From the NCBI GenBank assembly GCA_045046875.1, contig JASFYY010000141.1:1-26893 (forward strand): a DNA stretch of 26,893 nucleotides, in the 5' to 3' direction. Shown here in pieces: positions 4,255 to 26,893 of the stretch. Origin of the DNA: Verrucomicrobiota bacterium. Its GTDB lineage: Bacteria; Verrucomicrobiota; Verrucomicrobiia; Verrucomicrobiales; DEV007. Below the pieces are notes generated by a model. The model was not told where the DNA came from and made no database searches. It saw only the letters and a program-made list of their open reading frames with translations. Every line of letters starts with the position of its first letter. Positions within the stretch are counted from its first letter, which is position 1. The position numbers and the translations under genes are program-made.

Positions 4255-5967
4255 TTAGTCTTCGTCGGGGATCACTCCGATGTTCCAGAATTTGTGCATT
4301 TCTTCTGCTGATGGAATTTTCAGAGGACGAACGAGGCGGAAGCCGAGCCATTGGGCGTCGGTGTGGTACCAAATGGATTTGGGCAACTGGGGGTCTTCCA
4401 TTTTCCAGTCTTGCTCGGACTGGTAACGGATGGCGCTGCGGCAATCGGCGGGGTAGTCATACCAGGAACCGCCGCGGGCGACACGAGGGTAGAGCTGGGT
4501 TGGCAGCACCCAAGGATTAGGGTTTTTGAACTCTTTGTTGTAGGGCGCGTATTGGTCGATGACCCATTCGATCACGTTGCCGTGCATGTCATAGAGTCCC
4601 CAAGGGTTGGGTTTGAGGGTGCCTACTTTGGAGTATTGGTTGGCGTCGAATACACCGTATTCTTTCAGTTTTTCTGGATCGTCGCCAAAAGAATAAGCGG
4701 TTTTGGTGCCGGCGCGGCAGGCGTATTCCCATTCGGCTTCGGTGGGCAGGCGGTAGAATTGACCGGTCTGGGCGCTGAGCCACTGAGCGAATTTATTGGC
4801 GGCATGCTGGGTCATGCAGATGGCGGGGAAACCGTCGGTGCCCATGCCAAAACTCATTTCCGAGTAGGCGGTGGTGGGCGCGGAAACTAGCTTTTCCAGT
4901 GGCATATCTTCGCTCACTTTTTCAGGGAAACCGTCTTTGCGACGAGGAACGTCAGTGGTTCCGTAAGGTTCATACATGTTCCAAGTGACTTCGTATTTGC
5001 CCATCCAGAAAGGTTCGATGGCGATCTTGCGCTGTGGACCTTCGTCGTCAGCGCGTTCTTTTTCGGAATCGGGGCTGCCCATTAGGAACTCGCCACCTTT
5101 GATCGCTACCATGTCGAATTTCACGCCTGACAGGGGGATCTTACTCTCATAGTTTTTCATTTCACCCTCGGTTTTTTCTTTGGAGGCGGCGAGGATTTTT
5201 TCGCGGATTTTGGTGGTGAGAGTGAGGTCATCCTTGGGGCCTTTGTCTGCAGCGAGTGGCAGCTTGTAACCTTTGGGCCAAGGGGCGCCTGCTTCAGCCC
5301 ACTTGCTGAGGGTGGCGATTTCTGCAACGGAGAATTCGCCGCCTTTTTTCAGTAAAGGCAAGACGGTGAGAGTGAAGTTGCCAGCAGGTTCGGCGACGGA
5401 TTTGATTTCGCCTTCGAGCGGCAGTTGGTATTTAGCCGGCCAGGTGGCGCCTTGTTTGATCCAGATTTTGATCGCAGCGAGGTTTTTCTCGGAGAAAGGC
5501 GCGCCTTTTTTCAAAGCGGGTAAGATATTGACCCGGAATTTGAGACGTGGGGTCTGGGTGAGTGTGATGTCGTCGGGCCATTTGGCACCTTCTTTCACCC
5601 AAGCTTCGAGGATGTCTTGTTGCAGTTTGGTGAGAGGGGCGTTGGTTTTGGGCTTGGCAGGCATGACGTCGCCGTCAGCAGGCTCGGTGGTCATCCACCA
5701 GACAGGCGTTTCGTTGGGTTCGCCGGGGGTGATGGACGGGTTGTAGTCCGGGCCACCTTTGAACGCCAGCTCTTTGGTGTCCATGCGGTAGTCTCCGCCG
5801 TCTTTTTCGTTACTGGCTTCGTCGTGACAGTTGACACAGGCGGCTTCGAAGATCGGTTGCACGTCTTTGACAAAGTCGATGCCGCTTGGTTTGTCGGCGG
5901 CTTGTGCGGTGAAGGCGCTGCTGGCGATCAGGGCGGTGGCAAAAAAGGTTGGGCGGGAAAGTTTCAT
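4255..5967 (-). CDS. Secreted protein: planctomycete-type cytochrome c domain + FGE-sulfatase domain, paralog 2
   Basis: Same architecture as 2427..4157: CVNCH (5824-5838), RLPTEAEWEYACRAG, NPWGLYDMHGNV; long identical peptide stretches with synonymous DNA differences. Confidence 0.9.
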   Translation of the reverse strand: MKLSRPTFFATALIASSAFTAQAADKPSGIDFVKDVQPIFEAACVNCHDEASNEKDGGDYRMDTKELAFKGGPDYNPSITPGEPNETPVWWMTTEPADGDVMPAKPKTNAPLTKLQQDILEAWVKEGAKWPDDITLTQTPRLKFRVNILPALKKGAPFSEKNLAAIKIWIKQGATWPAKYQLPLEGEIKSVAEPAGNFTLTVLPLLKKGGEFSVAEIATLSKWAEAGAPWPKGYKLPLAADKGPKDDLTLTTKIREKILAASKEKTEGEMKNYESKIPLSGVKFDMVAIKGGEFLMGSPDSEKERADDEGPQRKIAIEPFWMGKYEVTWNMYEPYGTTDVPRRKDGFPEKVSEDMPLEKLVSAPTTAYSEMSFGMGTDGFPAICMTQHAANKFAQWLSAQTGQFYRLPTEAEWEYACRAGTKTAYSFGDDPEKLKEYGVFDANQYSKVGTLKPNPWGLYDMHGNVIEWVIDQYAPYNKEFKNPNPWVLPTQLYPRVARGGSWYDYPADCRSAIRYQSEQDWKMEDPQLPKSIWYHTDAQWLGFRLVRPLKIPSAEEMHKFWNIGVIPDED

Positions 5968-6729: not shown

Positions 6730-8313
6730 ATGAAAAAAAACCAGCTATTTTTGTTTTGTTTATTTGTCAGCACTTCGCTTTTTGCTGACGAGCGGCCCAA
6801 TATTCTGTTTCTTTTTTCAGATGATCATGCTTTGCGCACGATTGGAGCTTACGAAGGTTCTATCAATGAGACCCCGCACTTGGATCGCATCGCCAGTGAA
6901 GGCGCGATTTTTGACCGTTCGTTTAATGTCAATTCGATCTGTTGTCCGAGTCGCGCGGCGATTTTGACGGGCAAACACAGTCACGCTAATGGGATCACTG
7001 GAAATGGCTCGGCGTGGAATGGCAAACAGTGGGTGTATTCCCGCGAATTGGGCAAAGCGGGGTATCAGACGGGTTTGATTGGCAAGTGGCATCTTAAAGG
7101 CAATCCGACGGACGAGTTTCAGCATTGGGAGATTCTATCCGGCAAATCGGGTCAGGGTTCTTATTACAATCCGGAATTTCTCAGCGGATCGGCAGGTGCG
7201 TCCAAGGTGGAGGGCTATTCGACCAACATCATCACCGACAAGGCGCTCGACTGGTTGAAAAACCGTGATACGGAGAAACCTTTTTTGCTGTGTGCCAATT
7301 TCAAGGTGCCGCATATTCACCGTATTCCTTCACCGACCCACATGGGGGGTTACGATGATGTTGAAATTGCCGAGCCAAATACGCTTTTTGATGATTTCAG
7401 CAGTCGCCAGCCTTTTATCAAAGATACTTGGATGGGGCTGAAGGGAATGAAGGAGGGGGTGCTCAATATAGCGCCGTCCAAAGAACAATTGGCAAAGAGC
7501 CCTGACTTGATGCCTAAATTTCTCAAAGAGATGACATCTGTTCAACGGGATGCCTGGCATGCGGCTTACGATCCACGTAATCAAGAATACCGACGACTCA
7601 AGCAAGCCGGACTGCTGGAGGGGCAGGCGGGTTTTCGTTATACTTACCAGCGTTTTATCAAAGACTACCTGCGTTGCATCGACGGCTTGGATGAAAATGT
7701 GGGACGATTGCTAAATTATCTGGATGAAGCGGGATTGAGTGAAAACACCTTGGTGGTTTACAGTTCGGATCAGGGATTCCTCACGGGAGAGCACGGCTGG
7801 GCCGAGAAGCGTTGGATGTATGAAGAGAGCTTTCGTTCACCCTTGCTGATGCGCTGGCCGGGTAAGATCAAACCCGCGACGCGTATTTCCTCGCTGGTGC
7901 AGAATATTGATCTGGCACCGACTTTTCTCACCGCTGCCGGGTTGTCGGTTCCGGAGGAGGTGCATGGACGGGCGTTGCAGCCTTTGTTTTCTGGTCAAGC
8001 CCCGGCTGATTGGCGCAAGGATATTCTCTACACCTATTATGATGGCGGCACTCCGCAGGCGCGCGGTTCCTATAATATGCCGAGGCACATGGGGGTGCGG
8101 GATGAGCGGTATAAATTGATTCATTATTACGATTACGATGCCTGGGAGTTGTATGATTTGAAAATAGATGCGCGTGAAATTTCCAATCGCTATAAGGATC
8201 CCGCTTATCAAGAGGTGTCCAAGCGCCTGAAACTGCGGCTTGATGCGCTCAAGAATCAATACGACCTTCCAGATCCCCCTGCGCTTAAAAAAAAGAAAAA
8301 GCGTAAACATTAA
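6730..8313 (+). CDS. Formylglycine-dependent (S1) sulfatase, GlcNAc-6-sulfatase-like
   Basis: Signal peptide; RPNILFLFSDDH, CCPSRAAILTG (CxPxR), GKWHL, YSSDQG, EKRWMYEES. Subfamily assignment is tentative. Confidence 0.95.
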   Translation: MKKNQLFLFCLFVSTSLFADERPNILFLFSDDHALRTIGAYEGSINETPHLDRIASEGAIFDRSFNVNSICCPSRAAILTGKHSHANGITGNGSAWNGKQWVYSRELGKAGYQTGLIGKWHLKGNPTDEFQHWEILSGKSGQGSYYNPEFLSGSAGASKVEGYSTNIITDKALDWLKNRDTEKPFLLCANFKVPHIHRIPSPTHMGGYDDVEIAEPNTLFDDFSSRQPFIKDTWMGLKGMKEGVLNIAPSKEQLAKSPDLMPKFLKEMTSVQRDAWHAAYDPRNQEYRRLKQAGLLEGQAGFRYTYQRFIKDYLRCIDGLDENVGRLLNYLDEAGLSENTLVVYSSDQGFLTGEHGWAEKRWMYEESFRSPLLMRWPGKIKPATRISSLVQNIDLAPTFLTAAGLSVPEEVHGRALQPLFSGQAPADWRKDILYTYYDGGTPQARGSYNMPRHMGVRDERYKLIHYYDYDAWELYDLKIDAREISNRYKDPAYQEVSKRLKLRLDALKNQYDLPDPPALKKKKKRKH

Positions 8314-8427: not shown

Positions 8428-9978
8428 ATGCGCTATATTTTAACATTTGTATTTTGCACGCTCGCGACTTTTGCCAGATCGGCTGAAGCTCCCACTAATG
8501 TCTTGCTCATAACTGCTGATGATTTAGGTTATGAGGCACTTGATTTCCTCGATGGGGGATTAGCCGGAGTCACTCCCAATCTTGAGAAGCTGGCTAGTCA
8601 GAGTCTGAGTTTCAAAAAGGCTCATGTGAATGTTGCGATATGCGCGCCCAGTCGAAGTGTGATTGGGACCGGGCGTTATGGGCACAACAGTGGTTTGTTT
8701 GGTTTTAACCGGCTCTCTAAAAAGATTCCGACGGTGTTTGGGACTTTTCAGAAAAACGGGTTTCTTACGGGGGTGTTGGGCAAGGTCACTCATTCGACCT
8801 GTGATCCGGATTTTGTCTGGGACTTTGTTCATGACTATGCGGACTTGGGGGCGGGTCGCAGTCCCAGTAAGTATCATGACTATGCAGCGGAGTTTTTTGC
8901 TCGCAGCAAAAAAGAGGGCAAACCTTTTTATTTTATGGTCAATTCCCACGACCCGCACCGACCTTTTCACAATCCGGATCGGCCGATGAAAACTGCGGAG
9001 GAGCCTTCGCGTTTGTTCACTGCCGAAGAAGTGCCGGTGCCTTCTTACCTGACGGATTTGCCCGAGGTGCGTAAGGAGTTGTCACATTATTACAATTCGG
9101 TCAGGCGCCTAGACGATACGGTGGGGCGGGTGCTCGAAGCGCTTGATCAGTCAGGGCTGGCGGACAATACCCTGGTGGTATTTATCACCGACAACGGCTC
9201 GGCTTTTCCTTTTGCCAAGGCTAACGCCTACCTCGCCAGCACACGCACCGCGTTGCTGGTGCGCTGGCCGGGGGTGACCAAGGCGGGCACTGTGGATACG
9301 AAACATTTTGTCTCGACGGTTGACTTTTTTCCGACTTTCATGGACGTCGCCGGATTGCAAAAACCTGAGGGTTTGGACGGACGCTCACTGGTGCCTTTGT
9401 TTAAGGGAGAGCAGCAGGAGGGGCGGGAATATGTGTTCACTCAGATCGATTACACCATTGGCGGTCCGCCCAAGCCGATGCGTTGTATTCAGGATGGGGA
9501 ATACGGTTACATTTTCAATGCCTTTTCCGACGGCAAGTTCAGATACAGAAATAACAACGAGGGGCTGACTTTTAAAGCGATGGAAAAAGCGGGCAAGGAG
9601 GATGCGGCGATTCAGCAACGAGTGGATATGTATCGTTACCGCATTCCCCAGGAGTTTTATGACTTACAGAAGGATCCGGGTTGCACCATCAATTTGATTG
9701 ATGATCCCGCGCATCAGCAACGCATCGCTGAATATCAGCAACGTCTGCGACAATGGATGGTCGAGACCAATGATCACTGCATCGCGGCCTTTGATGTTCG
9801 CGACGATCCGGTGAAGCTAGCGGCGGCGATCAAGAGCTATCCAAAGTTGGTAAGGCTGGGCAAGCCGGAGAAAAAATCAAAACCCGGCAAAGCTGGGGAC
9901 GACGAGAAAAAGCGCAAACGGCGTGAGCAACGACTCAAGCGGAAAGCAGAGGAGAAGGCAAATCAGGACAAAAAATAA
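8428..9978 (+). CDS. S1 sulfatase, N-sulfoglucosamine sulfohydrolase (sulfamidase)-like
   Basis: Signal peptide; NVLLITADDLG, CAPSRSVIGTG, HDPHRPF, ITDNGSAFPFAKANAY. Subfamily assignment is tentative. Confidence 0.93.
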   Translation: MRYILTFVFCTLATFARSAEAPTNVLLITADDLGYEALDFLDGGLAGVTPNLEKLASQSLSFKKAHVNVAICAPSRSVIGTGRYGHNSGLFGFNRLSKKIPTVFGTFQKNGFLTGVLGKVTHSTCDPDFVWDFVHDYADLGAGRSPSKYHDYAAEFFARSKKEGKPFYFMVNSHDPHRPFHNPDRPMKTAEEPSRLFTAEEVPVPSYLTDLPEVRKELSHYYNSVRRLDDTVGRVLEALDQSGLADNTLVVFITDNGSAFPFAKANAYLASTRTALLVRWPGVTKAGTVDTKHFVSTVDFFPTFMDVAGLQKPEGLDGRSLVPLFKGEQQEGREYVFTQIDYTIGGPPKPMRCIQDGEYGYIFNAFSDGKFRYRNNNEGLTFKAMEKAGKEDAAIQQRVDMYRYRIPQEFYDLQKDPGCTINLIDDPAHQQRIAEYQQRLRQWMVETNDHCIAAFDVRDDPVKLAAAIKSYPKLVRLGKPEKKSKPGKAGDDEKKRKRREQRLKRKAEEKANQDKK

Positions 9979-13178: not shown

Positions 13179-13209
13179 AGATGGAGAAAGAAGGAGGCGC
13201 GTGGGGGAT

Positions 13210-13280
13210 GTGGGACGTAATGGCATTGCGTGGGGGTGAGGGTGGTTTGCGGGAATACACGGATTGCCAATCCATGCCAC
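13210..13280. repeat. REP doublet (REPIN-like), GTGG-type
   Basis: GTGG+gacgtaat-ggc-attgcgtg (13210-13232) and, on the minus strand, GTGG+catggatt-ggc-aatccgtg (13258-13280). Confidence 0.85.
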
Positions 13281-13327
13281 GATGAGGGAGGCGCGTGGTG
13301 GATCTTAAATAGGAAAAGTTTGCTGTC

Positions 13328-16371: not shown

Positions 16372-16744
16372 CCGCGGAACCTCCTTCGCCTAGGCTTTGG
16401 CGGTTGAGCGGGCGTGGATGTGCGCGGATAAGAGGGGGGAGGGAGAAAAATTAATGAGGAACACAGCCGATCCCGGTAACGCAGGGAAGACATTTGGATG
16501 GGACTAACCGAACACAGCCGTAGCGTAGCGAAGACAGCTGGAGGAAATTACCCGAAGGCAAATTGCCCCTCCTTCGTTCCGCTGCCGCGTCACTATGGCG
16601 GACAAGCAATCCATGCCACGATTTGAAGAGTGGATGCGCGGTGTGGAGTGTGGCACGCAATGGCATTGCGTGGGTTTTGCTGGTGAGCGAGAGGGGCGCA
16701 GCTGGAGGATAACACGGATTGCCAATCCATGCCACGATTTGAAG
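16372..16744. repeat. Composite repeat region: cgcggat triplet, mini-cassettes, one interrupted REP and one intact GTGG REP doublet
   Basis: Intact REPs at 16650-16672 (GTGG cacgcaat-ggc-attgcgtg) and 16713-16735 (identical to 13258-13280); REP remnant at 16513-16619; cctccttcg...tggcgg...agc units at 16380-16409 and 16568-16607. Confidence 0.82.
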
Positions 16745-16845: not shown

Positions 16846-18276
16846 CTAATAAGGGATCTCGCGGATGTAGATGTTTTTGAAATTCAGTTCATCGCCGTGG
16901 TTTTGAAGTTCAATTTGGTCTTCACGGAATACAGGGGTCTGGCGGGTTTTGTCCCAGAAGTTTTCCAATACGGTGCGATCAACCACTAATTTGCCATTGA
17001 GCCAGATGGTGGCTTTTTCTCCGACCATGCGGATCAGGAAGGTGTTCCATTCACCGATGGGATTATCGGCGAGAGTGAGCGGCACATTGCGTGAGTGTTT
17101 GTTATTCCACAGACTGCCGGATCCCAGATTACGTCCTGTTCTGTAGGCGGCGACGATGTCTTCCGGGGTGGTCGCAGGTTTGGAGGTCTTGGCTTTGCGA
17201 TCCTTGAGAGTATTGTCCCAGGGATCCCAGATTTGAACCTGGGGCGTGCCACGCAGGTAGATGCCGGAGTCAGCTGCGTGATGAATTTTCCAGTCCACAT
17301 AGAATTCGAAGTCACCGTAGTCTTTACCGGTGCAGAGGCTCTTGCCGCCGCCGTTGTAGATGAGTTCGCCACCTTTGACGCTCCAGTGTTCGTTCATGCT
17401 TTTATCAGCGATTTCCTGGGCTTTTTTCAGATCCGCGCCTTTCAGTGCGCGACGTTTGAGAGCGTTGGTATCGGCCAGTCCTTTCCATCCCTTGAGGTCC
17501 GTGCCGTTGAACAGGGCGGTGAAGCCTTTGGGTGCGGTATTGTCCTTGTCGGTTTTTGGTTTGGCGGGACTTGGGCTGAAATCGGCAATTCTCAAATCCT
17601 TGAAATCCGTAGGATCGTTGTGGCCGAGGATCATCAGGTGCCCTTTGGGATTACGAAGTCCCGGATGCTGGTGACCATCGATTGGTGTGACGCGGTCGAG
17701 ATTGGCATCGACGATGACGGCTCCGTTGACGATCACTTTCACATGATCTTCGATACAGATGATGGTTTCGTGATTCCATTCGCCGGCGGGTTTCAGGTAG
17801 CCGGTTTTGGCTGGAACCACACCGTAGATGGAGCCGTGTTTTTGATAGGGCTTGGCGTTTTTGTATTCCGTATCGAGGATCTGGATTTCCATCCCGCCGA
17901 TGTGGGGAGGGGCGCCTTTGGGCACGCGCAGGCCGATGCCGTTGTTGCCGGCGCTTTCGAGTTTGAATTTGAAGTCGATAATAAAATCACTGTATTCTTT
18001 TTCGGTGGAAATGGAGTGGGCTCCTTTGGGGCAGGTGACATTGGCTCCGTCAATTTTGTAGTTGGCGGTATCGCCGGTCCAGCCGGTGAAATCCTTGCCG
18101 TTGAACAGCGGCACCCAGTTACTGACTTTGTCGAGCATGGCCTGGGTTTTTTTACCGGCGACGATGGCGGGATCGGGGCCTTTTTTCTTCGGTGCGGCTT
18201 GCGCGGGAAGGGAGAGTCCGGCGATCAGCCCGAGGCCGATGGCGGAGGTGAGTAGGGTGAGTTTATTGGTTTTCAT
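16846..18276 (-). CDS. Tandem DUF1080 (3-keto-disaccharide hydrolase-like) protein, secreted
   Basis: Signal peptide; two domains with LFNGKDFTGW / LFNGTDLKGW, GNNGIGLR / DSGIYLR, EIQILD, GEWN, LQNHG..FKNIYIRE. Confidence 0.9.
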   Translation of the reverse strand: MKTNKLTLLTSAIGLGLIAGLSLPAQAAPKKKGPDPAIVAGKKTQAMLDKVSNWVPLFNGKDFTGWTGDTANYKIDGANVTCPKGAHSISTEKEYSDFIIDFKFKLESAGNNGIGLRVPKGAPPHIGGMEIQILDTEYKNAKPYQKHGSIYGVVPAKTGYLKPAGEWNHETIICIEDHVKVIVNGAVIVDANLDRVTPIDGHQHPGLRNPKGHLMILGHNDPTDFKDLRIADFSPSPAKPKTDKDNTAPKGFTALFNGTDLKGWKGLADTNALKRRALKGADLKKAQEIADKSMNEHWSVKGGELIYNGGGKSLCTGKDYGDFEFYVDWKIHHAADSGIYLRGTPQVQIWDPWDNTLKDRKAKTSKPATTPEDIVAAYRTGRNLGSGSLWNNKHSRNVPLTLADNPIGEWNTFLIRMVGEKATIWLNGKLVVDRTVLENFWDKTRQTPVFREDQIELQNHGDELNFKNIYIREIPY

Positions 18277-18355
18277 GAATACTTGGGTTGAGACACGTTT
18301 GCTGAGGTTTTGTTGAATAATTGTTATTTTCAGTCATTCGGAAGGGCTGTGTCAA

Positions 18356-19759
18356 TTAGGGATCGGTGGCTGATGAGGTATTTTCGGAGAGTAGTAAACT
18401 TCCGCTATACAAATTAATATTCGTTTTGGGGTGATCCCAATTTGCATCGATGATTAACTCTACTTTTTTATTGATGGAATTCGAGCTTAAATATTCTAGC
18501 GCATCAAATTTGAAATAGAAGCAGACAGGCGTTTCATGGGGGTGATGTTCTGAATAATAGTCAGAGAAGATATTAGATTCGTATATGGGAGTTACTGGAA
18601 TATTTGTTGCGTTTATTTTGAGAGTCAAATAAATCCCGATATCGTTTAAATTGGTTAATTGCGAGGTTAGATAGCACCCTGTTATATTTATTAGAGACGA
18701 GTGATTTGATGCAGTTATTTTGATGTTCATCGGGCAGTCGGGCTTTACCATTCCCATTTCCGAAACATATTTCCCATGCAATCTCATGTTGAACAATAAA
18801 GTGTGAATCAGTGCGAATGGCCATAAATGGGGTTGTAAGAATATGGCAAGAAACAATATGCTCTGAGGTAACCAAGTACGGTAGTAAACATCGATATCCT
18901 GATCCCAGGCGAATGATTTTAAGAGAGGGGTTTTTTGTTGGTTGCTTATTTTATATCTTTTTATCAATAGGTAGGTGATGTAAGTGCAAAACCCTAGAAG
19001 AGGAATTATGGATGTTTTTATGGATAGCAGAAGGAGGTATGTTAGTAGAATGCCTTCCAAGGGGGAGATGAAATAGCGGCTAATAAATATTGATCTCTTG
19101 AGGCCTATTCTAGTAACTGCTGTCAGAATACCCGATTTTAAATCGTCTTCAAAATCATCGATTTCATGGCCAATGATGCCTCTCAGTCCACTGAAAAACT
19201 GCCAGGCAAGGGCTATAATGAACAGTAAGCTGTGGTTTGTAGGGTTGCTGGAGCTCAGCTGAGTGGAGATTAAGCATGCGATCGCAAAAGGGATGACATG
19301 CGCATACAGGGAGTCGACGATGACGCCGATGAATGATTCTTTGAACCGAAGAGGAGGAAGGGAATAGATGATAAATAAAGCAGCTTCGATAGTCGCCAGT
19401 AAGTAAATGATAGGAGCGGCTTTGATCAGGATGAGTGCAGAAAATGAAAAAAATAGAGTTACAGTTATTAGGCTGTATCTTTTTTTCGTGGATACTGAGG
19501 ATAAGGAATTTTTTCTAGATGCTTTAGCATCTGTTTTCAAATCGCCGAGGTTGTTGATTATATGTCCAAAAGATGCGGTAAAGATAAAATAAGTCAGTAG
19601 AGCCAAAAAACAAAAGATGGCATTAAGCGTTGGAACATCACTTCCGATGAGGAGAAAGTAGAAAGGTGTAAAAAGGTAACTAAGTTTATAGTTCCACCAA
19701 TCATTGAGTCGGCTTAGTTTTTTAGCCCGACTAAATAAGCTGGATTTTTTTTCGGTCAT
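18356..19759 (-). CDS. UbiA-superfamily membrane prenyltransferase with a soluble C-terminal extension
   Basis: Multiple TM helices; first Asp-rich motif NNLGDLKTD, YSLPPLRFK, second motif HEIDDFEDDLKSGILT. Confidence 0.85.
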   Translation of the reverse strand: MTEKKSSLFSRAKKLSRLNDWWNYKLSYLFTPFYFLLIGSDVPTLNAIFCFLALLTYFIFTASFGHIINNLGDLKTDAKASRKNSLSSVSTKKRYSLITVTLFFSFSALILIKAAPIIYLLATIEAALFIIYSLPPLRFKESFIGVIVDSLYAHVIPFAIACLISTQLSSSNPTNHSLLFIIALAWQFFSGLRGIIGHEIDDFEDDLKSGILTAVTRIGLKRSIFISRYFISPLEGILLTYLLLLSIKTSIIPLLGFCTYITYLLIKRYKISNQQKTPLLKSFAWDQDIDVYYRTWLPQSILFLAIFLQPHLWPFALIHTLLFNMRLHGKYVSEMGMVKPDCPMNIKITASNHSSLINITGCYLTSQLTNLNDIGIYLTLKINATNIPVTPIYESNIFSDYYSEHHPHETPVCFYFKFDALEYLSSNSINKKVELIIDANWDHPKTNINLYSGSLLLSENTSSATDP

Positions 19760-19765
19760 TCTGAA

Positions 19766-20632
19766 CTATTTAGTGGATTGAGCTTCAGTAGGAAAGGAGA
19801 AGCCTGTGTTCTGAAGCTTTTCGGAGTTGAAGCGATCCACAGCATAATCGTATAGTTGTTGATCAATTTCGACGAAGTTTTCTAGTTTTCTACGTAATCC
19901 GAGATGGATACTAGATGACCAGAAATCGGGAGTGATGACGTTTTTTCGCTGAGGAGCAACTCTTTCGAGCAGTAGGGTGCGTTCGCCAGGTAGATTGAGG
20001 CAGTTGGCGATATGGTTTACGGATTCTACTGATTGCTCAAAAATGCCAAATGTCGGCATGCGATCAAGGAAAGTAATCGCATTTTCAAGCATCAAATGTT
20101 GGGGTGGAATGGAAGACTGTTTCATTAGCTCTTGAATTTGCTGGGAATCAGGCTTGCCCTTGGTTAAAAGCTGAAGAAGGGGGCGACGAACGGTAAGCTC
20201 CTGAGCTTGGGCATTCTGGATGGCTTCGATAAATGCTGGCACATCCAACATTGCTTCTACCGGATGAGCAGAGGTCAGGATGTTCTGGTAATGGTCTTTC
20301 CAACCAGGGTGTTGTTCCACAGCTGGCTCGCGTAATATGTGTTGAGCTAAAGAGAGAATACGTTCGATTGGTTTCCGGAGGTAGGTTACCGTGGCTACAG
20401 GGGAATCTAAGATATCAAGTAATGAGGCACCAAAATGTCCGGAGTAACATGAGTAGCTATTGATTTCTTCAAGGGGGAGCTCCAACAGCCCAACGAGATC
20501 ATAACAAGGTATGGAGTTTTCGGCAGTATAGAGACGACGGAGCCAACCCCCAAATGCTGATCCTGAAGTTTTGGGGATATGAAGAAAGTAAACTTTTCGA
20601 GATGGAGGTGCAGATTGATTGGGTTCTGACAT
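19766..20632 (-). CDS. PAPS-dependent sulfotransferase (family 2-like)
   Basis: 5'-PSB motif FLHIPKTSGS, SGHF, 3'-PB motif TYLRKPIERILS, C-terminal DQQLYDYA. Confidence 0.88.
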   Translation of the reverse strand: MSEPNQSAPPSRKVYFLHIPKTSGSAFGGWLRRLYTAENSIPCYDLVGLLELPLEEINSYSCYSGHFGASLLDILDSPVATVTYLRKPIERILSLAQHILREPAVEQHPGWKDHYQNILTSAHPVEAMLDVPAFIEAIQNAQAQELTVRRPLLQLLTKGKPDSQQIQELMKQSSIPPQHLMLENAITFLDRMPTFGIFEQSVESVNHIANCLNLPGERTLLLERVAPQRKNVITPDFWSSSIHLGLRRKLENFVEIDQQLYDYAVDRFNSEKLQNTGFSFPTEAQSTK

Positions 20633-20653
20633 GCTGAATTAAGCGGAATGGGA

Positions 20654-21796
20654 TTATTTGAATCGTTCGAGCGTGAGAGGTAATTTTTTAGGGCCTCGGA
20701 AAACAGAGTAGTTAACTAATGGGGGTTCATCAAGAGGCCAGTTGGGTGAAATATTACTAAACTGATTGAGCAAAGTTTTGATAACAATTTTGGCTTCTAG
20801 TCGGGCAAGATTCATTCCCAGGCATTGGTGATTACCAAAACCAAAGCCAAGATGTTTGTTGCGACGGCGATTGTATTGGAATTTGTCAGCGTCGGGGAAC
20901 TGTTTCTCATCGCGGTTGGCTGAGGCTAATAGGAGTTCGATTTTGTGCCCTTCGGGAATTAGTATTCCGTTTATTTGGCTAGGAGAGAGGGTTGTTCTAC
21001 GGATGCTTTGGGTAGGTGATTCAAATCGGACCACTTCCTCAATAAACAAAGGAATATTGCTAGGCGACTTGCGTAGAAGGTCAGCGAGGCTACTGCTCTC
21101 GGCTAAGATCTTGACGATTGTGCCGAGTAGGTCGTTGGTAGTAACCAGACCTGCCGCAGTCATAATCATGCAAATGTCATTGATTTCGTTGTCGTTAAGA
21201 ACAAAGAGTTCACTGAAGCCATCTTGAGTGTTTTGCCTGCGGGTTTGATTAATGTGTTTTTTGAAAAAATTGCGACATTCTCCTACAGGATCTTCTTGGC
21301 CATTTTTTGGATTAAATGATTCGGGATTTATGAGTGCATCCGACCATCGTTTGAGATCACTACAGTTTTCAGGCTTTAATCTTAGTAGGAAGGCGACGAT
21401 TTTAGTGGGTAACAGTTCGGCGACTTCCTGCATGAATTCGCAGGAACCTTCCTTGTCGATGTCTTGTGTGAGCTCTTGAACCCATATGGGGAGGTAGTCC
21501 TCTAGCAATTTTATTGTTTGCTGATTAAAAAGTTTGCGGACAATAGAGCGCACTCGGTCGTGAGGCTCTCCGTTTGCACCAACTAAAGTGGATTCAAAAG
21601 AACAATGGGTATTCGAATAAATATTAGGACTGTTGAGAACAGCAAGACAGTCGTCGTATCGGCTTATGATCCAAGCTTGTTTTTCTTCACTAAACATCAC
21701 AGGAGAATGTTTGCGTAAATAGTAGTAGTATGGGTAAGGGTTTTGCTGGAAATCAGTTGTGAAAAAAAACGCAGTTGAAGAATTCAATGAAATCAT
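20654..21796 (-). CDS. Cytochrome P450 (soluble bacterial type)
   Basis: NPYPYY, ExxR (EEVVRFESP), SANRDE, heme motif FGFGNHQCLG. Confidence 0.96.
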   Translation of the reverse strand: MISLNSSTAFFFTTDFQQNPYPYYYYLRKHSPVMFSEEKQAWIISRYDDCLAVLNSPNIYSNTHCSFESTLVGANGEPHDRVRSIVRKLFNQQTIKLLEDYLPIWVQELTQDIDKEGSCEFMQEVAELLPTKIVAFLLRLKPENCSDLKRWSDALINPESFNPKNGQEDPVGECRNFFKKHINQTRRQNTQDGFSELFVLNDNEINDICMIMTAAGLVTTNDLLGTIVKILAESSSLADLLRKSPSNIPLFIEEVVRFESPTQSIRRTTLSPSQINGILIPEGHKIELLLASANRDEKQFPDADKFQYNRRRNKHLGFGFGNHQCLGMNLARLEAKIVIKTLLNQFSNISPNWPLDEPPLVNYSVFRGPKKLPLTLERFK

Positions 21797-21839
21797 AGCA
21801 TCAATGTTTTTAAATACTTTGAGGGCGAGTCGGCTGAAG

Positions 21840-24800
21840 CTATTTCCGTTTCACATCAAATTTCATGGGAAGTTCGCTTGGCCCACGAAGAAGGAAGTAA
21901 TTCCTTTGCGGGGATTCGTCCAGTGGCCAGTTTGCTGAAAATGAGTCGGATTGTTCGAGCAGAAGTTCGATAGCTATTTTGGTCTCTAGTCGGGCGAGGT
22001 GCATGCCGATGCATTGGTGTGCGCCGTGTCCAAACGAGAGGTGATTGTTAGGTCTGCGGTCAAAGATGAATTGTTCAGAATCAGCAAATTGAGTTTCGTC
22101 GCGGTTTGCAGACCCGATCAAGAGCTGTATCATTTGCCCTCCGGCTATGGTATGTCCGCCAAGTAGGGTAGGTTTTGTGGTGTAGCGGAATACATCTTGT
22201 GGAGGAGATTCGAAGCGAAGGACCTCTTCGATAAAAGTGGGGATTTTTTGCGGATTAAGCCTGAGTTGGCTGGCAAGGTTTTTGTCGAGAGCCAGGATCA
22301 TGGCAGAGGAGCCTATGAGATTGAGAGTTGTTACAAATCCGGCTACCATTAAGAGCATGCAAATATCTATGATTTCAGGATCGCTGAGCTGCTTGCCGCC
22401 ACTGCTAGATTGGATGAGTTCCTGGAAGGCGTCGTGAGTTTGGTTTTTACGTTCTTTATCGATATGTTGCTGAAAAAAAGAACGGCATTCTTTGATTGGA
22501 TTATTTTGTTTCTGATCAGTTGTGGTATTATCAGGGTATAATAGAGCGTCTGCCCATTTGTTCATATCTTGGTAACGGTCGGGTTCCAAGCGCAGCAGAT
22601 AGGCTATGACTTTGACGGGAAGCACTTCAGCCACCTCTTTCATGAAGTCGCCGCAACCACGACTACGGATATTCTTGAATAGCGGAATAGCCCATTGTTT
22701 GATGTTTTTTTGCAGGGCTTGTATTAACTCCAGGCTGAAAAGCTCTTGAACGACCGAGCGCACTCTTTCGTGCTTTTCTCCGTCAGCTCCAAGGAGGGCG
22801 GATTCAAAAGAAGTTTGATGGGTGGTGAAGGTAGTGTCATCTTTTAAGACCTGTAGGCAATCACTATAATTGCTTACCAACCAGGTTTGACTACCTTCAT
22901 TAAAAAATACCGGGTGATGATGACGTAAAAAATTGTAATAAGGGTAAGGGTTTTTGAGGAATTCTTTTGACCCAAAAATTTCAGGTGGTTGTTTTATTGA
23001 GGCTGAGGCTGAGGGTTGGTAATCTTTAAGTGTTGCGTGGCGTGAAAGAGCTTCAAGGCAGAAGCCGGTGGTCAACTCTTCGGACCCCCAGTATTCATTT
23101 GGGCCTCTGTAGAAGGGGTGTCGTGACCAGGATCCATCACCTTGCTGGTTGTTCAGCAGGTAAGTGATTAAGTCATTTAGAATAGGTGATTCGGGAGCAA
23201 TGGTGATCAAGGTGCAAGCGGCAAGTGAGGCGCTTAGCGGGGAATGTTCAGCTAGAGTTGATGAAAAACGGGATTCGATGCGAGCAGTGATTTGTGGAGA
23301 TGTTTCTTGAAGGCTGGGAGCACTGTGTTGGCAAGCTCTAGCGATCATATAATAAAGAGCCAGCACATCGTGGTAGTAAAAGCTGGACCCTTCTTCGGAG
23401 TTGGAGTCGATCAGTTTCACAAGGTAATTGACGATGGATTCAGTATCTGAATTTTCTCCTAGGTAGAGCAATACATTGGCGTTCACAACAGAATCGATCT
23501 CTTTAGGGAGAGATGGATCCTTGATGGAGTCAAAACGCCTGTTCCCCTCGTATTCAACGGGCTTGGGAGGTGTGTTGATAGCCGCCTGACCTTCGAGATC
23601 GGACAAAAAAGCTTTGTATTTTTCGGTGCTGGTTTCGTCAGCTAGTAGCCAAGTGCAAAAAAGGTGATTTGAATTCTGGTTGCTTTTGAAAATCCATTCA
23701 TTGTCTGGGATTTCCCTGCCATTATCTTTCAAAACAAATGAAGCGCACGAAGTGTCGTCCAAGTCCGGAGGGATGCGTGTGTGTTTGAATTGTTTATTGG
23801 AGTAATAACGCCAAACCCCTCCACGTTCCATCTGGCTTTCTAGGAATGCCAGGGAGCGATCAATGATCACTTTGCTGGCAGGCAAGCATGATTTTAAAGA
23901 GTGAGCAAGAAGGCTGGTGACAAAAGGGGAGCTATCCCAGACGCCATCGCTGAGGGAGCTATTTGATGAAATCAAAGTTTCGAATTCACCGTCTTCGTGT
24001 TGTTTGCTGCTTAAATACTCGATTCCGTGATCGATTGATTTACGGAGATTATTAAGGTTCAGTGGGATCTTTTGTGAGTCATTCTGATGGGGTTTCTGGT
24101 TTTCGAGTGGGATGTCTTTGAATATCCAATCTGCCAAAGCATCTACATAATTTTTGTAAGAGTGATGGCTTTGCACATAGGTGGCTCCTTGATTTTTCAC
24201 TCGGATACGTTGATCGGACGCTCCCATTAGGCTGTCGATGGCTTTAATGGTTTCACCCATATTTTGATAGGGAACTACGATGCCGAAACCGGTTTCGCGG
24301 ATGATGTCGCGACTTCCCTGGCCCTTATCAAAACCAACCACCGGGATGCCCATAAGGAATGATTCGAGGACCACACTAGGGAAAGGATCGATTCGCGAGC
24401 AGAGTAGGAAAACGTCCGCTTGCAATAGAGCGGGGCGAATATCTTCCGTCTCATCGAGGTGGTGAAAGTGCCCGATGATACCTTCTTGTTGCAAATCATG
24501 CATCGCATGGAAAAAGAGATCTTTATCGCCAATGCTCCCGACCCACAGGAAATGAGTATTCGCTGCATGTGGGGAGGTTTTTGAATATTTGATGATCAAT
24601 GAGGTTAACCAGTCAAACCCTTTGCGGGAGTCGACGGTTCCACAAGACATCACTAATCGGTCACTCGCTTGTAGATGATTTACAGAGCGAAAGGTTTCGG
24701 TGAACTCGCTGATGTCATTTTCGGTGGGAGCCTGTTTTTCTAGGAGGTAACATCCTTGGGGGTAAACAGAGAACTTAGTAACAGAGTTTTCTGTATGGCT

Positions 24801-25706
24801 TGTGAATTTCCGGGCAGCAAAGCTTTGCAGGACTGCTTGGCAGGGGAAAACGACGTTGCTTGCAGCAGCGAAGTGACGTTGTACCCACTCATGATCAAAG
24901 GCATAAGGGTATTCGTGAATCAGTGATCTGACATCCATGCCTGCAGCGGCGCAAGCTTCGGCAATGCCGGTAGAGCAGAGAGAATTGATCAGTGCGATTT
25001 GATTGTATGTGACTTGGTTGAGCTCAGCAAAAAAAACAGTAACTTCAGGTATTGTGGTTTTGAACGCCTGCTCGAGATTTTCGACAATCAAAAGGCATTG
25101 CTCGTTAAAATCGGAAAACAAGGTTTCCTTTGGAGCTAAGGACAAAAGGATTATTTCGCAGTCATGCCGTTGTTTGAGATGCCGGATAATCTCGAGGATG
25201 ATCATGGGAGCTCCGGTTCGGGTCATGTCGTGAGTCCCGACCACGAGTATTTTTTTCCCGGTTAACTTCGCGAGTTTGGTAGTGGCTTCTTTGAGCCGAG
25301 TTCTTAGAGTCAGGGTAGATTCTTTTCTTTTCTCTAAATTACGGAGTAAACGCTCAGTAGGAAGTTCTCTTGGGGCTTTGGGGAATATCTCCCCAGTTTC
25401 GAGAACTTTAAACTGGAACAAGTGAGGGGTGTTGAATGGTTTTAACCATTCATAAGGAACAGGAAGTGAGAAGCCATGCCCGTCAGAGATTTCTGCTTTG
25501 AGTGAATTTTTGTTGGCTAAAGTTGAAACGATGACTTCGCCGCTGGAGTCGATCAAACCTACATGGAAGTGGAGGTTGACGGAATTTTGGTTGAAAACGC
25601 CACCGTGGAAACATAAATCTTCGATTCCAAAATAGCGTTTTTTGGTTGAGGTTACACCTGCTTTCCGTTGTGTGATGCCTTTTTTTAGTTTCGAAAGAAA
25701 GGTCAT
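21840..25706 (-). CDS. Multidomain fusion: GT-B glycosyltransferase (GT4-like) + class II terpene cyclase-like beta domain + cytochrome P450
   Basis: aa ~150-530: THDMTRTGAP, GTVDSRKG, SRIDPFPSVVLE (D/E-x7-E). aa ~554-890: QW-like repeats (KQHEDGEF, QMERGGVW, QQGDGSW) and DLDDT at aa 648-652. aa ~910-1288: EEVLRFESP and FGHGAHQCIG (Cys1232). Confidence 0.88.
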   Translation of the reverse strand: MTFLSKLKKGITQRKAGVTSTKKRYFGIEDLCFHGGVFNQNSVNLHFHVGLIDSSGEVIVSTLANKNSLKAEISDGHGFSLPVPYEWLKPFNTPHLFQFKVLETGEIFPKAPRELPTERLLRNLEKRKESTLTLRTRLKEATTKLAKLTGKKILVVGTHDMTRTGAPMIILEIIRHLKQRHDCEIILLSLAPKETLFSDFNEQCLLIVENLEQAFKTTIPEVTVFFAELNQVTYNQIALINSLCSTGIAEACAAAGMDVRSLIHEYPYAFDHEWVQRHFAAASNVVFPCQAVLQSFAARKFTSHTENSVTKFSVYPQGCYLLEKQAPTENDISEFTETFRSVNHLQASDRLVMSCGTVDSRKGFDWLTSLIIKYSKTSPHAANTHFLWVGSIGDKDLFFHAMHDLQQEGIIGHFHHLDETEDIRPALLQADVFLLCSRIDPFPSVVLESFLMGIPVVGFDKGQGSRDIIRETGFGIVVPYQNMGETIKAIDSLMGASDQRIRVKNQGATYVQSHHSYKNYVDALADWIFKDIPLENQKPHQNDSQKIPLNLNNLRKSIDHGIEYLSSKQHEDGEFETLISSNSSLSDGVWDSSPFVTSLLAHSLKSCLPASKVIIDRSLAFLESQMERGGVWRYYSNKQFKHTRIPPDLDDTSCASFVLKDNGREIPDNEWIFKSNQNSNHLFCTWLLADETSTEKYKAFLSDLEGQAAINTPPKPVEYEGNRRFDSIKDPSLPKEIDSVVNANVLLYLGENSDTESIVNYLVKLIDSNSEEGSSFYYHDVLALYYMIARACQHSAPSLQETSPQITARIESRFSSTLAEHSPLSASLAACTLITIAPESPILNDLITYLLNNQQGDGSWSRHPFYRGPNEYWGSEELTTGFCLEALSRHATLKDYQPSASASIKQPPEIFGSKEFLKNPYPYYNFLRHHHPVFFNEGSQTWLVSNYSDCLQVLKDDTTFTTHQTSFESALLGADGEKHERVRSVVQELFSLELIQALQKNIKQWAIPLFKNIRSRGCGDFMKEVAEVLPVKVIAYLLRLEPDRYQDMNKWADALLYPDNTTTDQKQNNPIKECRSFFQQHIDKERKNQTHDAFQELIQSSSGGKQLSDPEIIDICMLLMVAGFVTTLNLIGSSAMILALDKNLASQLRLNPQKIPTFIEEVLRFESPPQDVFRYTTKPTLLGGHTIAGGQMIQLLIGSANRDETQFADSEQFIFDRRPNNHLSFGHGAHQCIGMHLARLETKIAIELLLEQSDSFSANWPLDESPQRNYFLLRGPSELPMKFDVKRK

Positions 25707-25711
25707 CTATA

Positions 25712-26506
25712 TCAATTAACTGACTGAGCTTTGATGTTGGTCCAGACGATGTTGCGGTATTGGGCGCGGGTTTGGAAGGAGCAGAGGCCGAGGGGGATGC
25801 AGAGTTCGATGTCGCCGGGGCGCACGCTGATTTTTTTGTCTTTCAGGTCAAGATCGACAAATTGTTTGTCGTCGAGCCACACTTCGATTTTGGGATCGGT
25901 GACGCGGACTTTGATTTTATACCAACGGTTGTCTTCGAAACCTTCGATGTTCATGGTTTCGTTTTCCGAGGCATCGAGGTCATCGATGCTGGAGATGCCG
26001 ATGATGCCACCACCCCAGCCGCCGGCGATGAAAGAGCAGTGGCTGTCTTTGACGGGAAAGGTGAGGCCGAGGAAAAAGTCGTTGCCGCTCAGTTTCATCA
26101 CTTCGAGGGAAAGTTCGTAGTTGGAGGTGGCGGGTGGTTTATCGCCCCAGACGACGCCGGTCATCATCGCGCCGAAGTCAAACTGCAGGTCGCCTTTTTC
26201 GGTGATGAAAACTTCGCCTTCGCCACCGAACTCAACCGGCTTCCATTGACCCATTTTTTTACCATCAAAGAGAGAGATGATATTGGGATCTTTTTTGGGC
26301 GCAGCAGGTTTGGCTGCGGCTTTGGGCTTTTCCTTGGGCTTTTCAGCAGCAGCTTTTGCTGGGGCTGTGGCAGGTGCTGTTTGGTCTTTAGCTTTGTCAG
26401 CTTCGGGTTTTGGCGGGGTATCGCCGGGCTTGCAGGCGGGCAAGCTGATGAGGGTCAGGGCGAGTAAGCATAGGGCGAGCGGGGATAGTTTGAGCAATTT
26501 TGACAT
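25712..26506 (-). CDS. DUF1080-domain lipoprotein
   Basis: MSKLLK...LISLPAC lipobox-like signal, Ala/Pro/Lys linker, SLFDGK..GQW, GGWGGG, WYKIKVRV. The start at 26506 is chosen over the longer ORF that overlaps the helicase. Confidence 0.82.
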   Translation of the reverse strand: MSKLLKLSPLALCLLALTLISLPACKPGDTPPKPEADKAKDQTAPATAPAKAAAEKPKEKPKAAAKPAAPKKDPNIISLFDGKKMGQWKPVEFGGEGEVFITEKGDLQFDFGAMMTGVVWGDKPPATSNYELSLEVMKLSGNDFFLGLTFPVKDSHCSFIAGGWGGGIIGISSIDDLDASENETMNIEGFEDNRWYKIKVRVTDPKIEVWLDDKQFVDLDLKDKKISVRPGDIELCIPLGLCSFQTRAQYRNIVWTNIKAQSVN

Positions 26507-26615
26507 GAAGGAAGTGTGGGGGCAGAGCGAGAGGTCGCAAGGGATTTTTTGACTTTGAGCAGGAAGAAACGTTTGAAGAGGGCGGCGGAGTGAAGGATGT
26601 AGGGGCAGGAATAAT

Positions 26616-26893
26616 ATGATTTCGATAAATGACAATGCAGCGGGCCAGTCCCTGGTGGACGAGGTCAGGGAGTTTTTCTCTCCTGAGGGCGCGCTTTCGT
26701 CTTTGAAGCACTTTGAATACCGGGCTGAGCAGCAGCAAATGGCGGTTAGTGTGGCGGCATCGCTGGTGAATGCGGAGCCCCTGGTGGTGGAAGCGGGCAC
26801 CGGGGTGGGCAAATCGCTGGCTTATCTGGTGCCGGCGGTGTTGTTGGCGAAGCGGGAGAAGCGCAAGGCGGTGATCACCACTCATACGATCAA
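26616..26893 (+). CDS. DinG/YoaA-family ATP-dependent helicase, 3' truncated by the window end
   Basis: Not in the ORF track. Manual translation MISINDN...FEYRAEQQQMA...VVEAGTGVGKSLAYLVPA...VITTHTI shows the Q motif, Walker A and motif Ia; agga lies upstream of the ATG. Confidence 0.9.
   Translation, partial: MISINDNAAGQSLVDEVREFFSPEGALSSLKHFEYRAEQQQMAVSVAASLVNAEPLVVEAGTGVGKSLAYLVPAVLLAKREKRKAVITTHTI

Follow-up and report, generated by a model that had tools for sequence, protein, structure and literature searches.

The window examined here is a whole contig of 26,893 bp (JASFYY010000141.1; C141 of our genome G000) from a Verrucomicrobiota bacterium, and our subject is a cassette of four co-oriented genes within it, which encode a UbiA membrane prenyltransferase (P0001), a sulfotransferase (P0002), a stand-alone cytochrome P450 (P0003), and a fusion protein (P0004) combining an N-terminal domain, a GT4 glycosyltransferase, a class II terpene cyclase, and a second P450. 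The genes are divided by gaps of 6, 21, and 43 bp, and all four reading frames are intact, the catalytic motifs being kept except for an Asp to Asn replacement in motif 1 of the UbiA protein. The initial annotation of this DNA had described four tightly packed co-oriented genes with six enzymatic domains; the coordinates of the open reading frames (ORFs) bear out this layout, and all six domains were found by means of Pfam, haem motifs, the GT-B fold, and a sulfotransferase profile, together with two small extra ones, a beta-sandwich in P0004 and a soluble C-terminal domain in P0001. We suggest that the four genes probably act in a single pathway, whose product would be a sulfated glycoside of a cyclic terpenoid.

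Table 1. Position of the island, its genes and their domains in the window
Feature	Position	Strand	Basis
Island holding exactly four genes, 7,408 bp	18318-25725		bounds from relatives and read contigs
Four-gene cassette, all co-oriented	18356-25706	-	ORF listing
P0001, UbiA protein, 467 aa	18356-19759	-	
Soluble C-terminal domain of P0001, residues ~331-467 plus stop codon	18356-18769	-	no hydrophobic segment
UbiA membrane prenyltransferase domain of P0001, residues 1-330	18770-19759	-	Pfam PF01040
P0002, sulfotransferase, 288 aa	19766-20632	-	
P0003, stand-alone cytochrome P450, 380 aa	20654-21796	-	
P0004, fusion of N-terminal domain, GT4, class II cyclase and P450, 1288 aa	21840-25706	-	
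C-terminal P450 domain of P0004, residues ~910-1288	21843-22979	-	Pfam p450
Monodomain (beta) class II terpene cyclase domain of P0004, residues 540-905	22992-24089	-	
DxDD general-acid motif D648-L-D650-D651	23754-23765	-	alignments
GT4 (GT-B, retaining-type) domain of P0004, residues 153-530	24117-25250	-	Pfam, Foldseek
N-terminal seven-strand beta-sandwich of P0004, residues 22-114	25365-25643	-	AlphaFold model m376c8a94bb73

Domains of the four proteins

The cyclase segment of P0004 gives a sub-threshold score with the SQHop_cyclase_C family (19.5 bits), and a search with it retrieved 917 stand-alone proteins of about 350 amino acids and 54 long proteins in which the cyclase is fused to other enzymes. 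In a 42-member alignment (A1), the columns P108, D109, and D111 show no variation, and D112 and T113 hardly any (the stretch PPDLDDT). In terms of P0004, D648 and D650 occur in 42/42 of these sequences and D651 in at least 90%, and all three are kept in 10/10 fusion orthologues. The AlphaFold2 model of the domain calculated from A1 (predicted local distance difference test, pLDDT, 95.3; predicted template modelling score, pTM, 0.93) is a single beta domain of the (alpha/alpha)6 fold, and its best Foldseek matches are class II terpene cyclases without exception. Behind the top match, the fold scores are 28.1 for a 342-residue myxobacterial chain deposited as squalene-hopene cyclase, 27.3 for squalene-hopene cyclase (SHC), 27.1 for both MstE and the Actinoplanes “prenylcyclase” 6ij1, and 26.8 for SsDMS, as compared to about 20 for unrelated (alpha/alpha)6 barrels; no paper describing PDB 8pak, 8paj, or 6ij1 was found. 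A QW-type repeat (QGDGSW at residue 855) lies in the region aligned with the QW segments of SHC. By these sequence and model features the domain has the defining properties of a class II cyclase, for which protonation-initiated cyclisation is predicted. Its family is represented in many phyla; among 1.84 billion proteins, it counts 840 cluster representatives when the limit is set to E <=1e-30 and 3,985 when it is set to E <=0.001.

The initial annotation had cited MstE as an example of such enzymes; the domain is nearer to that of the drimenol synthase AsDMS: the family profile matches AsDMS at 2.9e-15, SHC at 3e-11, AstC at 7.7e-8, and MstE at 0.006, the last match covering only about 45 residues, with 17% identity in the structural alignment. 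AsDMS (PDB 9mhs, 9m7d-f) and AstC resemble the P0004 domain in having a single beta domain without a gamma domain, in the profile match, and in the alignment of the general-acid Asp (D650 with D323). They differ from it in their HAD phosphatase domain, while P0004 has GT4 and P450 domains fused to the cyclase and a UbiA gene as a partner, and in the motif, which is the canonical DxDD in P0004 and DxDT in AsDMS and AstC. In AsDMS, D323 is the general acid and R368, R370, R415, and Y416 bind phosphate (PMC12232559, partial text). Of these phosphate ligands, Y416 is kept in the profile alignment, R368 is unaligned, and neither R370 nor R415 is retained, the former being opposite an acidic residue and the latter opposite a variable one (Phe in the window). 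Two other arginines, Arg94 and Arg138 in the numbering of the domain, are specific to the family and might bind a diphosphate or the head group of an acceptor. P0004 is not a HAD-type drimenol synthase, because the beta-sandwich and GT4 lie upstream of the cyclase and no HAD family was found in Pfam or NCBIfam. A sterol- or hopanoid-like product, mentioned as a possibility in the initial annotation, has no support and was dropped: the enzyme has only one beta domain, and the closest of its structural relatives with a known reaction cyclise C15–C20 chains.

Both P450s match PF00067 (2.1e-23 for P0003; 1.4e-22 for residues 1047–1252 of P0004) and possess intact haem motifs, FGFGNHQCLG and FGHGAHQCIG, as well as ExxR and I-helix motifs. 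P0003 has its haem Cys motif at residue 318 and its ExxR at 253, and in P0004, the haem Cys1232 is invariant in 10/10 orthologues. The best match of P0003 is the P450 domain of the neighbouring P0004 (47%), its orthologues reaching 41% or less, and it therefore looks like an in-cluster duplicate. The GT4 domain is supported by PF13692 (Glyco_trans_1_4, 2.9e-15) and PF00534, with a group-1 glycosyltransferase span at residues 337–507, and Foldseek matched this region to WaaG, HepE, MshA, BshA, and PglA at about 1e-13. In the AlphaFold model of residues 1–545 (pLDDT 82.9), the order is the beta-sandwich, a long helix, and the GT-B fold. The beta-sandwich has no Pfam family, and an Atlas look-up of the N-terminal 150 residues gave no lead. 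The same beta-sandwich and GT4 module occurs elsewhere without a cyclase, fused either to an FkbM methyltransferase domain (L016 8178-10580 in G035) or to about 330 residues of no known family (L015 5589-8189 in G024).

The UbiA domain of P0001 matches PF01040 with 55 bits against a cut-off of 34.2 (E 9.8e-15), and a crude hydropathy scan revealed eight hydrophobic windows (six of them non-overlapping) between residues 36 and 318 and none beyond, as in a polytopic membrane protein. The Asp-rich motifs are N69-N-x-x-D73-x-x-x-D77 and D201-x-x-x-D205; the first reads N-N-L-G-D-L-K-T-D, and its second position, residue 70, is Asp in 6/6 orthologues and Asn in P0001. The wider consensus for UbiA motif 1 is NxxxDxxxD. 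A phmmer search of P0001 against the PDB yielded no useful match, and Atlas returned a generic UbiA label only. For the C-terminal domain of about 140 amino acids, Pfam gave no family, and its conservation is limited to six Verrucomicrobial orthologue loci. In two loci of Verrucomicrobiia (L017 4373-6859 and L018 10288-12654), the UbiA partner carries an added C-terminal acyltransferase domain (PKS AT-like, Acyl_transf_1). The C-terminal domain of P0001 might dock onto the N-terminal domain of P0004 and so tether the fusion to UbiA, but this idea is weakened, as the latter domain accompanies GT4 in G024 and G035, where our query found no UbiA.

P0002 alone has no match in Pfam (even at E 10) or NCBIfam, and phmmer against the PDB gave chance-level matches only. 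It is the sole gene of its sulfotransferase type in the genome, and five relatives exist in a set of 5.8 billion proteins, two of them with a precomputed Sulfotransfer_2 match. The profile built from P0002 and these relatives (A2) matches heparan-sulfate 6-O-sulfotransferase (HS6ST; PDB 5t03) at 2.7e-14, aligning FLHIPKTSG with FLHIQKTGG and LRKPIERILS with LRDPVSRYLS. We take the aligned motifs to be those binding 3'-phosphoadenosine 5'-phosphosulfate (PAPS), namely PKxxG(S/T) for the 5'-phosphosulfate and RxPxxRxxS for the 3'-phosphate. In P0002, they are PKTSGS at residue 20 and RKPIERILS at 86, and K21, R86, R91, and S94 are invariant in 6/6 sequences. Sulfotransfer_2 is matched by the other five of the six A2 members (E up to 1; best 7.3e-12). 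Judged from this profile match and the aligned motifs, in which it is similar to HS6ST and Sulfotransfer_2, P0002 is to be classified as a PAPS-type, Sulfotransfer_2/HS6ST-like sulfotransferase, but unlike HS6ST it is a bacterial cytoplasmic protein of 288 amino acids that by itself reaches no Pfam model.

The island and its distribution among relatives

The genes that flank the island (16846-18276 on the left and 25712-26812 on the right) adjoin each other in four of the five same-genus genomes (G001, G003, G004, G005), and in the fifth, G002 (73% complete), nothing usable was matched. Homology with G003 ends at 18320 and picks up at about 25728. Moreover, two public runs, X1 and X2, include contigs in which 25726 follows directly on 18317 and 7,408 bases are omitted. 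This island-free junction has a depth of 27.9 in X1, where its shorter side comprises 83 letters, and of 6.7 in X2, where it comprises 52. Pieces of the island are also present in X1 at a depth of 2.5–4.8, versus 23–28 for the island-free form. The GC content is 0.438 in the island versus 0.512 in the rest of the window, and GC at third codon positions is 0.42–0.48 in its genes versus 0.64 in both flanking genes. No mobility gene was found within the island. The 7-bp sequence TCAATTA occurs at both of its ends and is too short to be called a target duplication. The best explanation of these sequence data is that the island was acquired horizontally and is polymorphic in nature, in agreement with the word “insert” used in the initial annotation. 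The full-length fusion was found in two of 40 relatives (G019 and G026), and an even sampling of the phylum with 300 additional genomes yielded no cyclase domain (E <=1e-20); the cassette is therefore an accessory element of rare and patchy occurrence.

The island begins only about 19 bp ahead of the ATG of the fusion gene, directly at the 3' end of the co-oriented host gene 25712-26812, and transcription would therefore read through from this gene. A scan for promoters and terminators found no more sites than in shuffled sequence; no RNA run is listed for the stretch, and four DNA runs contain only small shares of its sequence. The lack of a promoter region of its own, the outcome of the promoter scan, the replacement in UbiA motif 1, the low depth of the island pieces in X1, and the rarity of the cyclase in the phylum could mean that the island is a recent passenger, poorly expressed or partly inactive in its host. 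We consider this very improbable, since none of the four reading frames is broken and all catalytic motifs but that one are preserved, the genes are closely packed in the direction of the host gene before them, which permits read-through, and a lineage-specific P450 duplicate has been retained.

The ORF 25712-26812 itself (366 aa, TTG start) is probably shorter than listed: its relatives match free of stops only from about residue 67–81, and its upstream part has in-frame stops in G001, G004, and G005. Its last few codons differ from those of the relatives because the island starts there.

Partners of the cyclase in other genomes

The architecture of P0004 recurs in nine database proteins and six genome loci. 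To see which enzymes accompany the cyclase, we took the best 80 of the 226 loci found in a scan of our genome collection, with up to 8 kb on each side, and searched them by jackhmmer, the queries being the domains of the window itself and sulfotransferase seeds from the loci. A UbiA partner was detected in 36 of the 80 loci (fused to the cyclase in 10), a P450 in 23 (fused in 6), a GT4 in 22 (fused in 6), and a sulfotransferase-like ORF in 18 (never fused); at least one partner is present in 50 loci and all four in 6. In G019 and G026, the UbiA gene directly follows the fusion gene. The homologues thus co-occur among the related loci and in fusions from many phyla; had they never done so, the initial annotation would have been refuted by its own criterion.

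In many cyanobacteria, the database fusions combine the cyclase with UbiA, and PhyH dioxygenase, TPR, and thioesterase domains are often added. Stand-alone UbiA-cyclase proteins (P0019 to P0021) and UbiA-cyclase-P450 (P0016), UbiA-cyclase-PhyH (P0022), cyclase-sulfotransferase (P0057), and cyclase with P450 alone also exist, and L023 encodes a UbiA-GT4 fusion. The neighbouring sulfotransferases are of four Pfam kinds (ST1, ST2, ST3, and Stf0) and mostly lie directly beside the cyclase gene, which suggests their repeated recruitment. L071 has seven sulfotransferase-like ORFs, of which Pfam named five of the six scanned, representing four Pfam kinds, and they share one co-oriented run with GT2, GT4, cyclase, and P450 genes. 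L040 presents the series P450, cyclase, sulfotransferase, polyprenyl synthase, UbiA, GT4, GT2, GT4.

In a cyclase tree of 79 loci and the window (one partial domain was left out), the window falls into a clade with a Shimodaira–Hasegawa-like approximate likelihood ratio test (SH-aLRT) value of 99, which consists of seven Verrucomicrobiota rows, all of them GT4-cyclase-P450 fusions with UbiA alongside. Apart from this clade, an Acidobacteriota/Gemmatimonadota clade also includes the full set of four partners. Over 34 loci, the pairwise distances of the cyclase are correlated with those of UbiA (r 0.84; none of 2000 Mantel permutations as high), which shows joint inheritance but is inflated by the shared ancestry of the hosts.

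Pfam scans of neighbour ORFs (83; 136 of 149; 12) revealed as recurrent neighbours GT2, PhyH, methyltransferases, ABC transporters, polyprenyl synthases (L040, L049, L063, L075), and fatty-acyl-AMP-ligase-like A-T-TE proteins (L031, L035, L051, L085). The polyprenyl synthases of L063 and L040 read HTSSLIFDDLPxMDDA, which by the chain-length rule we assume to be the CrtE type forming geranylgeranyl diphosphate (GGPP). In L040 (10144-11053), the synthase is split over two overlapping frames, by a frameshift or an assembly error. In L075 (3299-5761), from a metagenome-assembled genome of the Patescibacteria group, it is interrupted by an intein with a LAGLIDADG domain and neighbours genes for UbiA, cyclase, geranylgeranyl reductase, NUDIX, and HMG-CoA synthase.

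Some of the loci adjoin genes of polysaccharide type, and the cyclic terpenoid could accordingly have a role in the cell envelope instead of being a free small molecule: it would anchor a sulfated surface glycan in the membrane or serve as its modified lipid carrier. G026 has a Wza-like exporter and GT9, L093 a dTDP-sugar epimerase and GT2, and L040, L049, L081, and L085 have several GT2, GT4, ABC-transporter, and sugar-nucleotide genes, while the many sulfotransferases of L071 stand alongside GT2 and GT4. The GT4 enzymes WaaG, PglA, and PimB' act on membrane-bound acceptors, and as fold neighbours of the GT4 domain they would support an acceptor of this kind. Such a role is nevertheless quite improbable, because the island has a single glycosyltransferase and lacks a flippase, a polymerase, and an exporter, the genes on either side of it are unrelated and of hydrolase type, and the core pair is also met alone or with genes of the polyketide synthase (PKS) or non-ribosomal peptide synthetase (NRPS) type. 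The relatives are therefore not confined to surface-polysaccharide loci.

Proposed order of the pathway and its place among known systems

The proposal that we favour is that of an acquired island whose genes would form a single pathway to a cyclic terpenoid lipid, oxygenated, glycosylated, and sulfated, in which UbiA acts first; taken as a whole it is tentative, a little short of an even chance. In the first step, UbiA would ionise a host prenyl diphosphate (C15–C20) and join the chain to a small acceptor supplied by the host, aromatic or not; GGPP is the likelier guess for the substrate because two relatives carry a CrtE-like synthase. The DxDD cyclase would then protonate the terminal double bond via D650 and fold the chain into rings, an epoxidase being unnecessary. 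The fused P450 and its stand-alone duplicate would hydroxylate the scaffold with redox partners of the host, the fused GT4 would add a sugar from a nucleoside diphosphate sugar, and the HS6ST-like sulfotransferase would sulfate the sugar or a hydroxyl using host PAPS. As the initial annotation had noticed, the four genes of the island include no prenyl diphosphate synthase, ferredoxin, or aromatic-precursor gene. The host genome encodes three polyprenyl synthases and one adenosine 5'-phosphosulfate (APS) kinase, and by this gene content it can presumably supply both prenyl diphosphates and PAPS.

The order “UbiA first” is slightly preferred over the order “cyclase first”. According to the latter, the class II domain would cyclise free farnesyl diphosphate (FPP) or GGPP to a cyclic prenyl diphosphate (such as drimenyl or copalyl), which UbiA would then ionise, acting either as a UbiA-type (class I-like) synthase or as a transferase that passes the cyclic prenyl moiety on to a nucleophile such as water; a separate acceptor would then be dispensable, and the product would be a plain terpenoid glycoside sulfate rather than a meroterpenoid. 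This course, which we regard as rather unlikely, has a precedent in platencin biosynthesis, where ent-copalyl diphosphate (ent-CPP) is converted by a UbiA-type diterpene synthase (PMC10301674, partial text), and about 14% of actinobacterial ent-CPP synthase clusters have a likely UbiA cyclase (PMC9814783, partial text). It is consistent, too, with the absence of an acceptor gene recurring near the relatives and with the stand-alone UbiA-cyclase fusions. However, the phosphate-binding arginines R370 and R415 of AsDMS are lost in the cyclase alignment, and in two independent kinds of fusion the order from N- to C-terminus is UbiA, cyclase, oxygenase. In addition, cyclase, P450, and GT4 in one polypeptide fit better with three consecutive steps after UbiA than with a UbiA step in between. 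The action of UbiA before the cyclase is also in line with PlaT3 and AtoD, which precede the class II cyclase (PMC11317874; PMC11600129; partial texts), and with MstE, which cyclises a prenylated acceptor (PMC12414744, partial text).

The product postulated in the initial annotation was a glycosylated or sulfated meroterpenoid. One pathway leading to a terpenoid with sugar and sulfate is likely in view of the fusions and adjacencies in other lineages, but an aromatic acceptor is not supported. An aromatic meroterpenoid would be a special case of the order with UbiA acting first, in which UbiA prenylates 4-hydroxybenzoate or dihydroxybenzoate and MstE-like cyclisation follows. The merosterol cluster with MstE is a precedent for it (PMC12414744, PMC5618424; partial texts), and it would suit a type III PKS located about 2–4 kb from the UbiA gene in the close relative L018 and a PKS-NRPS gene that the gene pair follows in G019. 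With these two exceptions, no chorismate-derived or aromatic-acid (acceptor-forming) gene recurs among the Pfam-scanned neighbour ORFs, and none is in the island. The profile match with MstE reaches only E 0.006, and in the pla and ato clusters the acceptors of the UbiA enzymes that accompany class II cyclases are non-aromatic (PMC11317874; PMC11600129; partial texts). All this makes the aromatic variant improbable. The PKS-NRPS of G019 (L013 1-9272) exceeds 3,000 amino acids (DH-MT-ER-KR-ACP-C-A), is encoded on the same strand, and ends 32 bp before the fusion gene, which hints at a polyketide/peptide-terpenoid hybrid there.

Several points weigh against the one-pathway proposal with UbiA first, apart from the inflated distance correlation, the polysaccharide-type neighbours of G026 and L093, and the want of a recurrent acceptor-forming gene. 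AsDMS, the closest solved structure, cyclises free FPP, which favours the order with the cyclase first, and the mapping of residues onto AsDMS is an alignment at about 20% identity. Asn70 in P0001 might, from its place in the motif, weaken catalysis. A sulfotransferase of the P0002 type is present in only two of the six closest orthologue loci (L017 and L018), and the search in G019 and G026 did not find one. Thirty of the 80 loci show no partner enzyme at all; GT4 and P450 are common families, and the adjacency counts have no background of random loci; the ORFs were called naively, and many loci are cut by contig ends.

Clusters uniting UbiA with a class II cyclase are already known in kind. 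The merosterol cluster of Scytonema is similar to the island in having a monodomain class II cyclase with a UbiA prenyltransferase and P450s, but the sequence similarity of the cyclases is barely detectable (E 0.006), and the island lacks aromatic-precursor genes. MstE has a DxD motif and acts on a prenylated dihydroxybenzoate, and no fused glycosyltransferase or sulfotransferase is listed in the available part of the source (PMC12414744). The actinomycete clusters for phenalinolactone, brasilicardin, and atolypene (pla, bra, and ato) likewise have a UbiA prenyltransferase together with a class II cyclase and P450s. The pla and bra clusters include glycosyltransferases. All three differ from the island, which has a canonical DxDD monodomain cyclase, fused enzymes, and neither epoxidase nor synthase. 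As far as the available parts of the sources go, these clusters have a non-canonical xxx(E/D)(T/S)xE epoxide-opening cyclase, a flavin epoxidase, and an in-cluster polyprenyl synthase (PMC11600129), relatives of the ato cluster sometimes possess sulfotransferases (PMC11600129), and in pla and ato UbiA acts first on a non-aromatic acceptor (PMC11317874; PMC11600129). The platencin PtmT2/PtmT1 type resembles the island in having a class II cyclase and a UbiA-family protein in one cluster (PMC10301674, PMC9814783; partial texts). Its class II enzymes are beta-gamma ent-CPP synthases, unlike the monodomain enzyme here, and PtmT1 was compared by description only.

The initial annotation did not recognise this combination as a described cluster, and a literature search reaching few subscription journals and no supplements likewise found no match. 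In particular, this full-text search found no description of a GT4-cyclase-P450 fusion or of a cluster of UbiA, monodomain cyclase, and sulfotransferase. The novelty lies in the architecture of fused domains, in the pairing of an AsDMS-like monodomain cyclase with UbiA, in the recurrence of sulfation, and in the clean bounds of a polymorphic island. A review of the sulfated merotriterpenoids of sponges, the producers of which are not known, predicts for them a prenyltransferase similar to UbiA, a cyclase similar to SHC, and a sulfotransferase, and states that a pathway is yet to be identified (PMC5618424, partial text). This predicted enzyme set may, by analogy, serve as a lead for the island, not as a match.

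Taken jointly, the island may belong to a phylum-spanning uncharacterised class that uses a two-part membrane terpene synthase, makes sulfated cyclic terpenoid glycolipids, and may comprise a microbial source of sponge compounds of the adociasulfate type; in this full extent the idea is doubtful. If it is true, UbiA and an AsDMS-like monodomain DxDD cyclase would form a new two-part synthase, its products would be a lipid class undescribed from bacteria, and relatives of the island could be the long-sought microbial source of adociasulfate-type meroterpenoids of marine sponges. The pathway of the island, once established, would give a function to a cyclase family of about 840 representatives, unannotated or generically named in public databases, and would show whether UbiA enzymes precede or follow such cyclases. 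Bacterial terpenoids with both sugar and sulfate are hardly known, and the island is a self-contained four-gene cassette of 7.4 kb. The recruitment of four sulfotransferase families beside the cyclase suggests that sulfation matters for the role of the product, which might act as an amphiphile, as a signal, or as a surface lipid. The natural presence or absence of the island among close relatives offers a route to link it with a metabolite.

Some features of the window outside the island should be mentioned. Two intergenic stretches of about 50–100 bp (13200-13300 and 16510-16680) match dozens of sites in G003 and G005 with 77–98% identity, contain direct repeats of 20 and 35 nt within the window, and look like a dispersed family of repetitive extragenic palindromic (REP)-like repeats. 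The ORF 3-1004 has a weak match to an IS200-like Y1 transposase in its first 58 residues only, and the local GC skew of 0.45 is unusually high. The tandem paralogues 2427-4157 and 4255-5967 each combine a Planctomycete-type cytochrome c (PSCyt1) with an FGE-sulfatase domain, and two sulfatase genes (6730-8313 and 8428-9978) lie beside them. The host region is thus devoted to the removal of sulfate, whereas the island is devoted to its addition.

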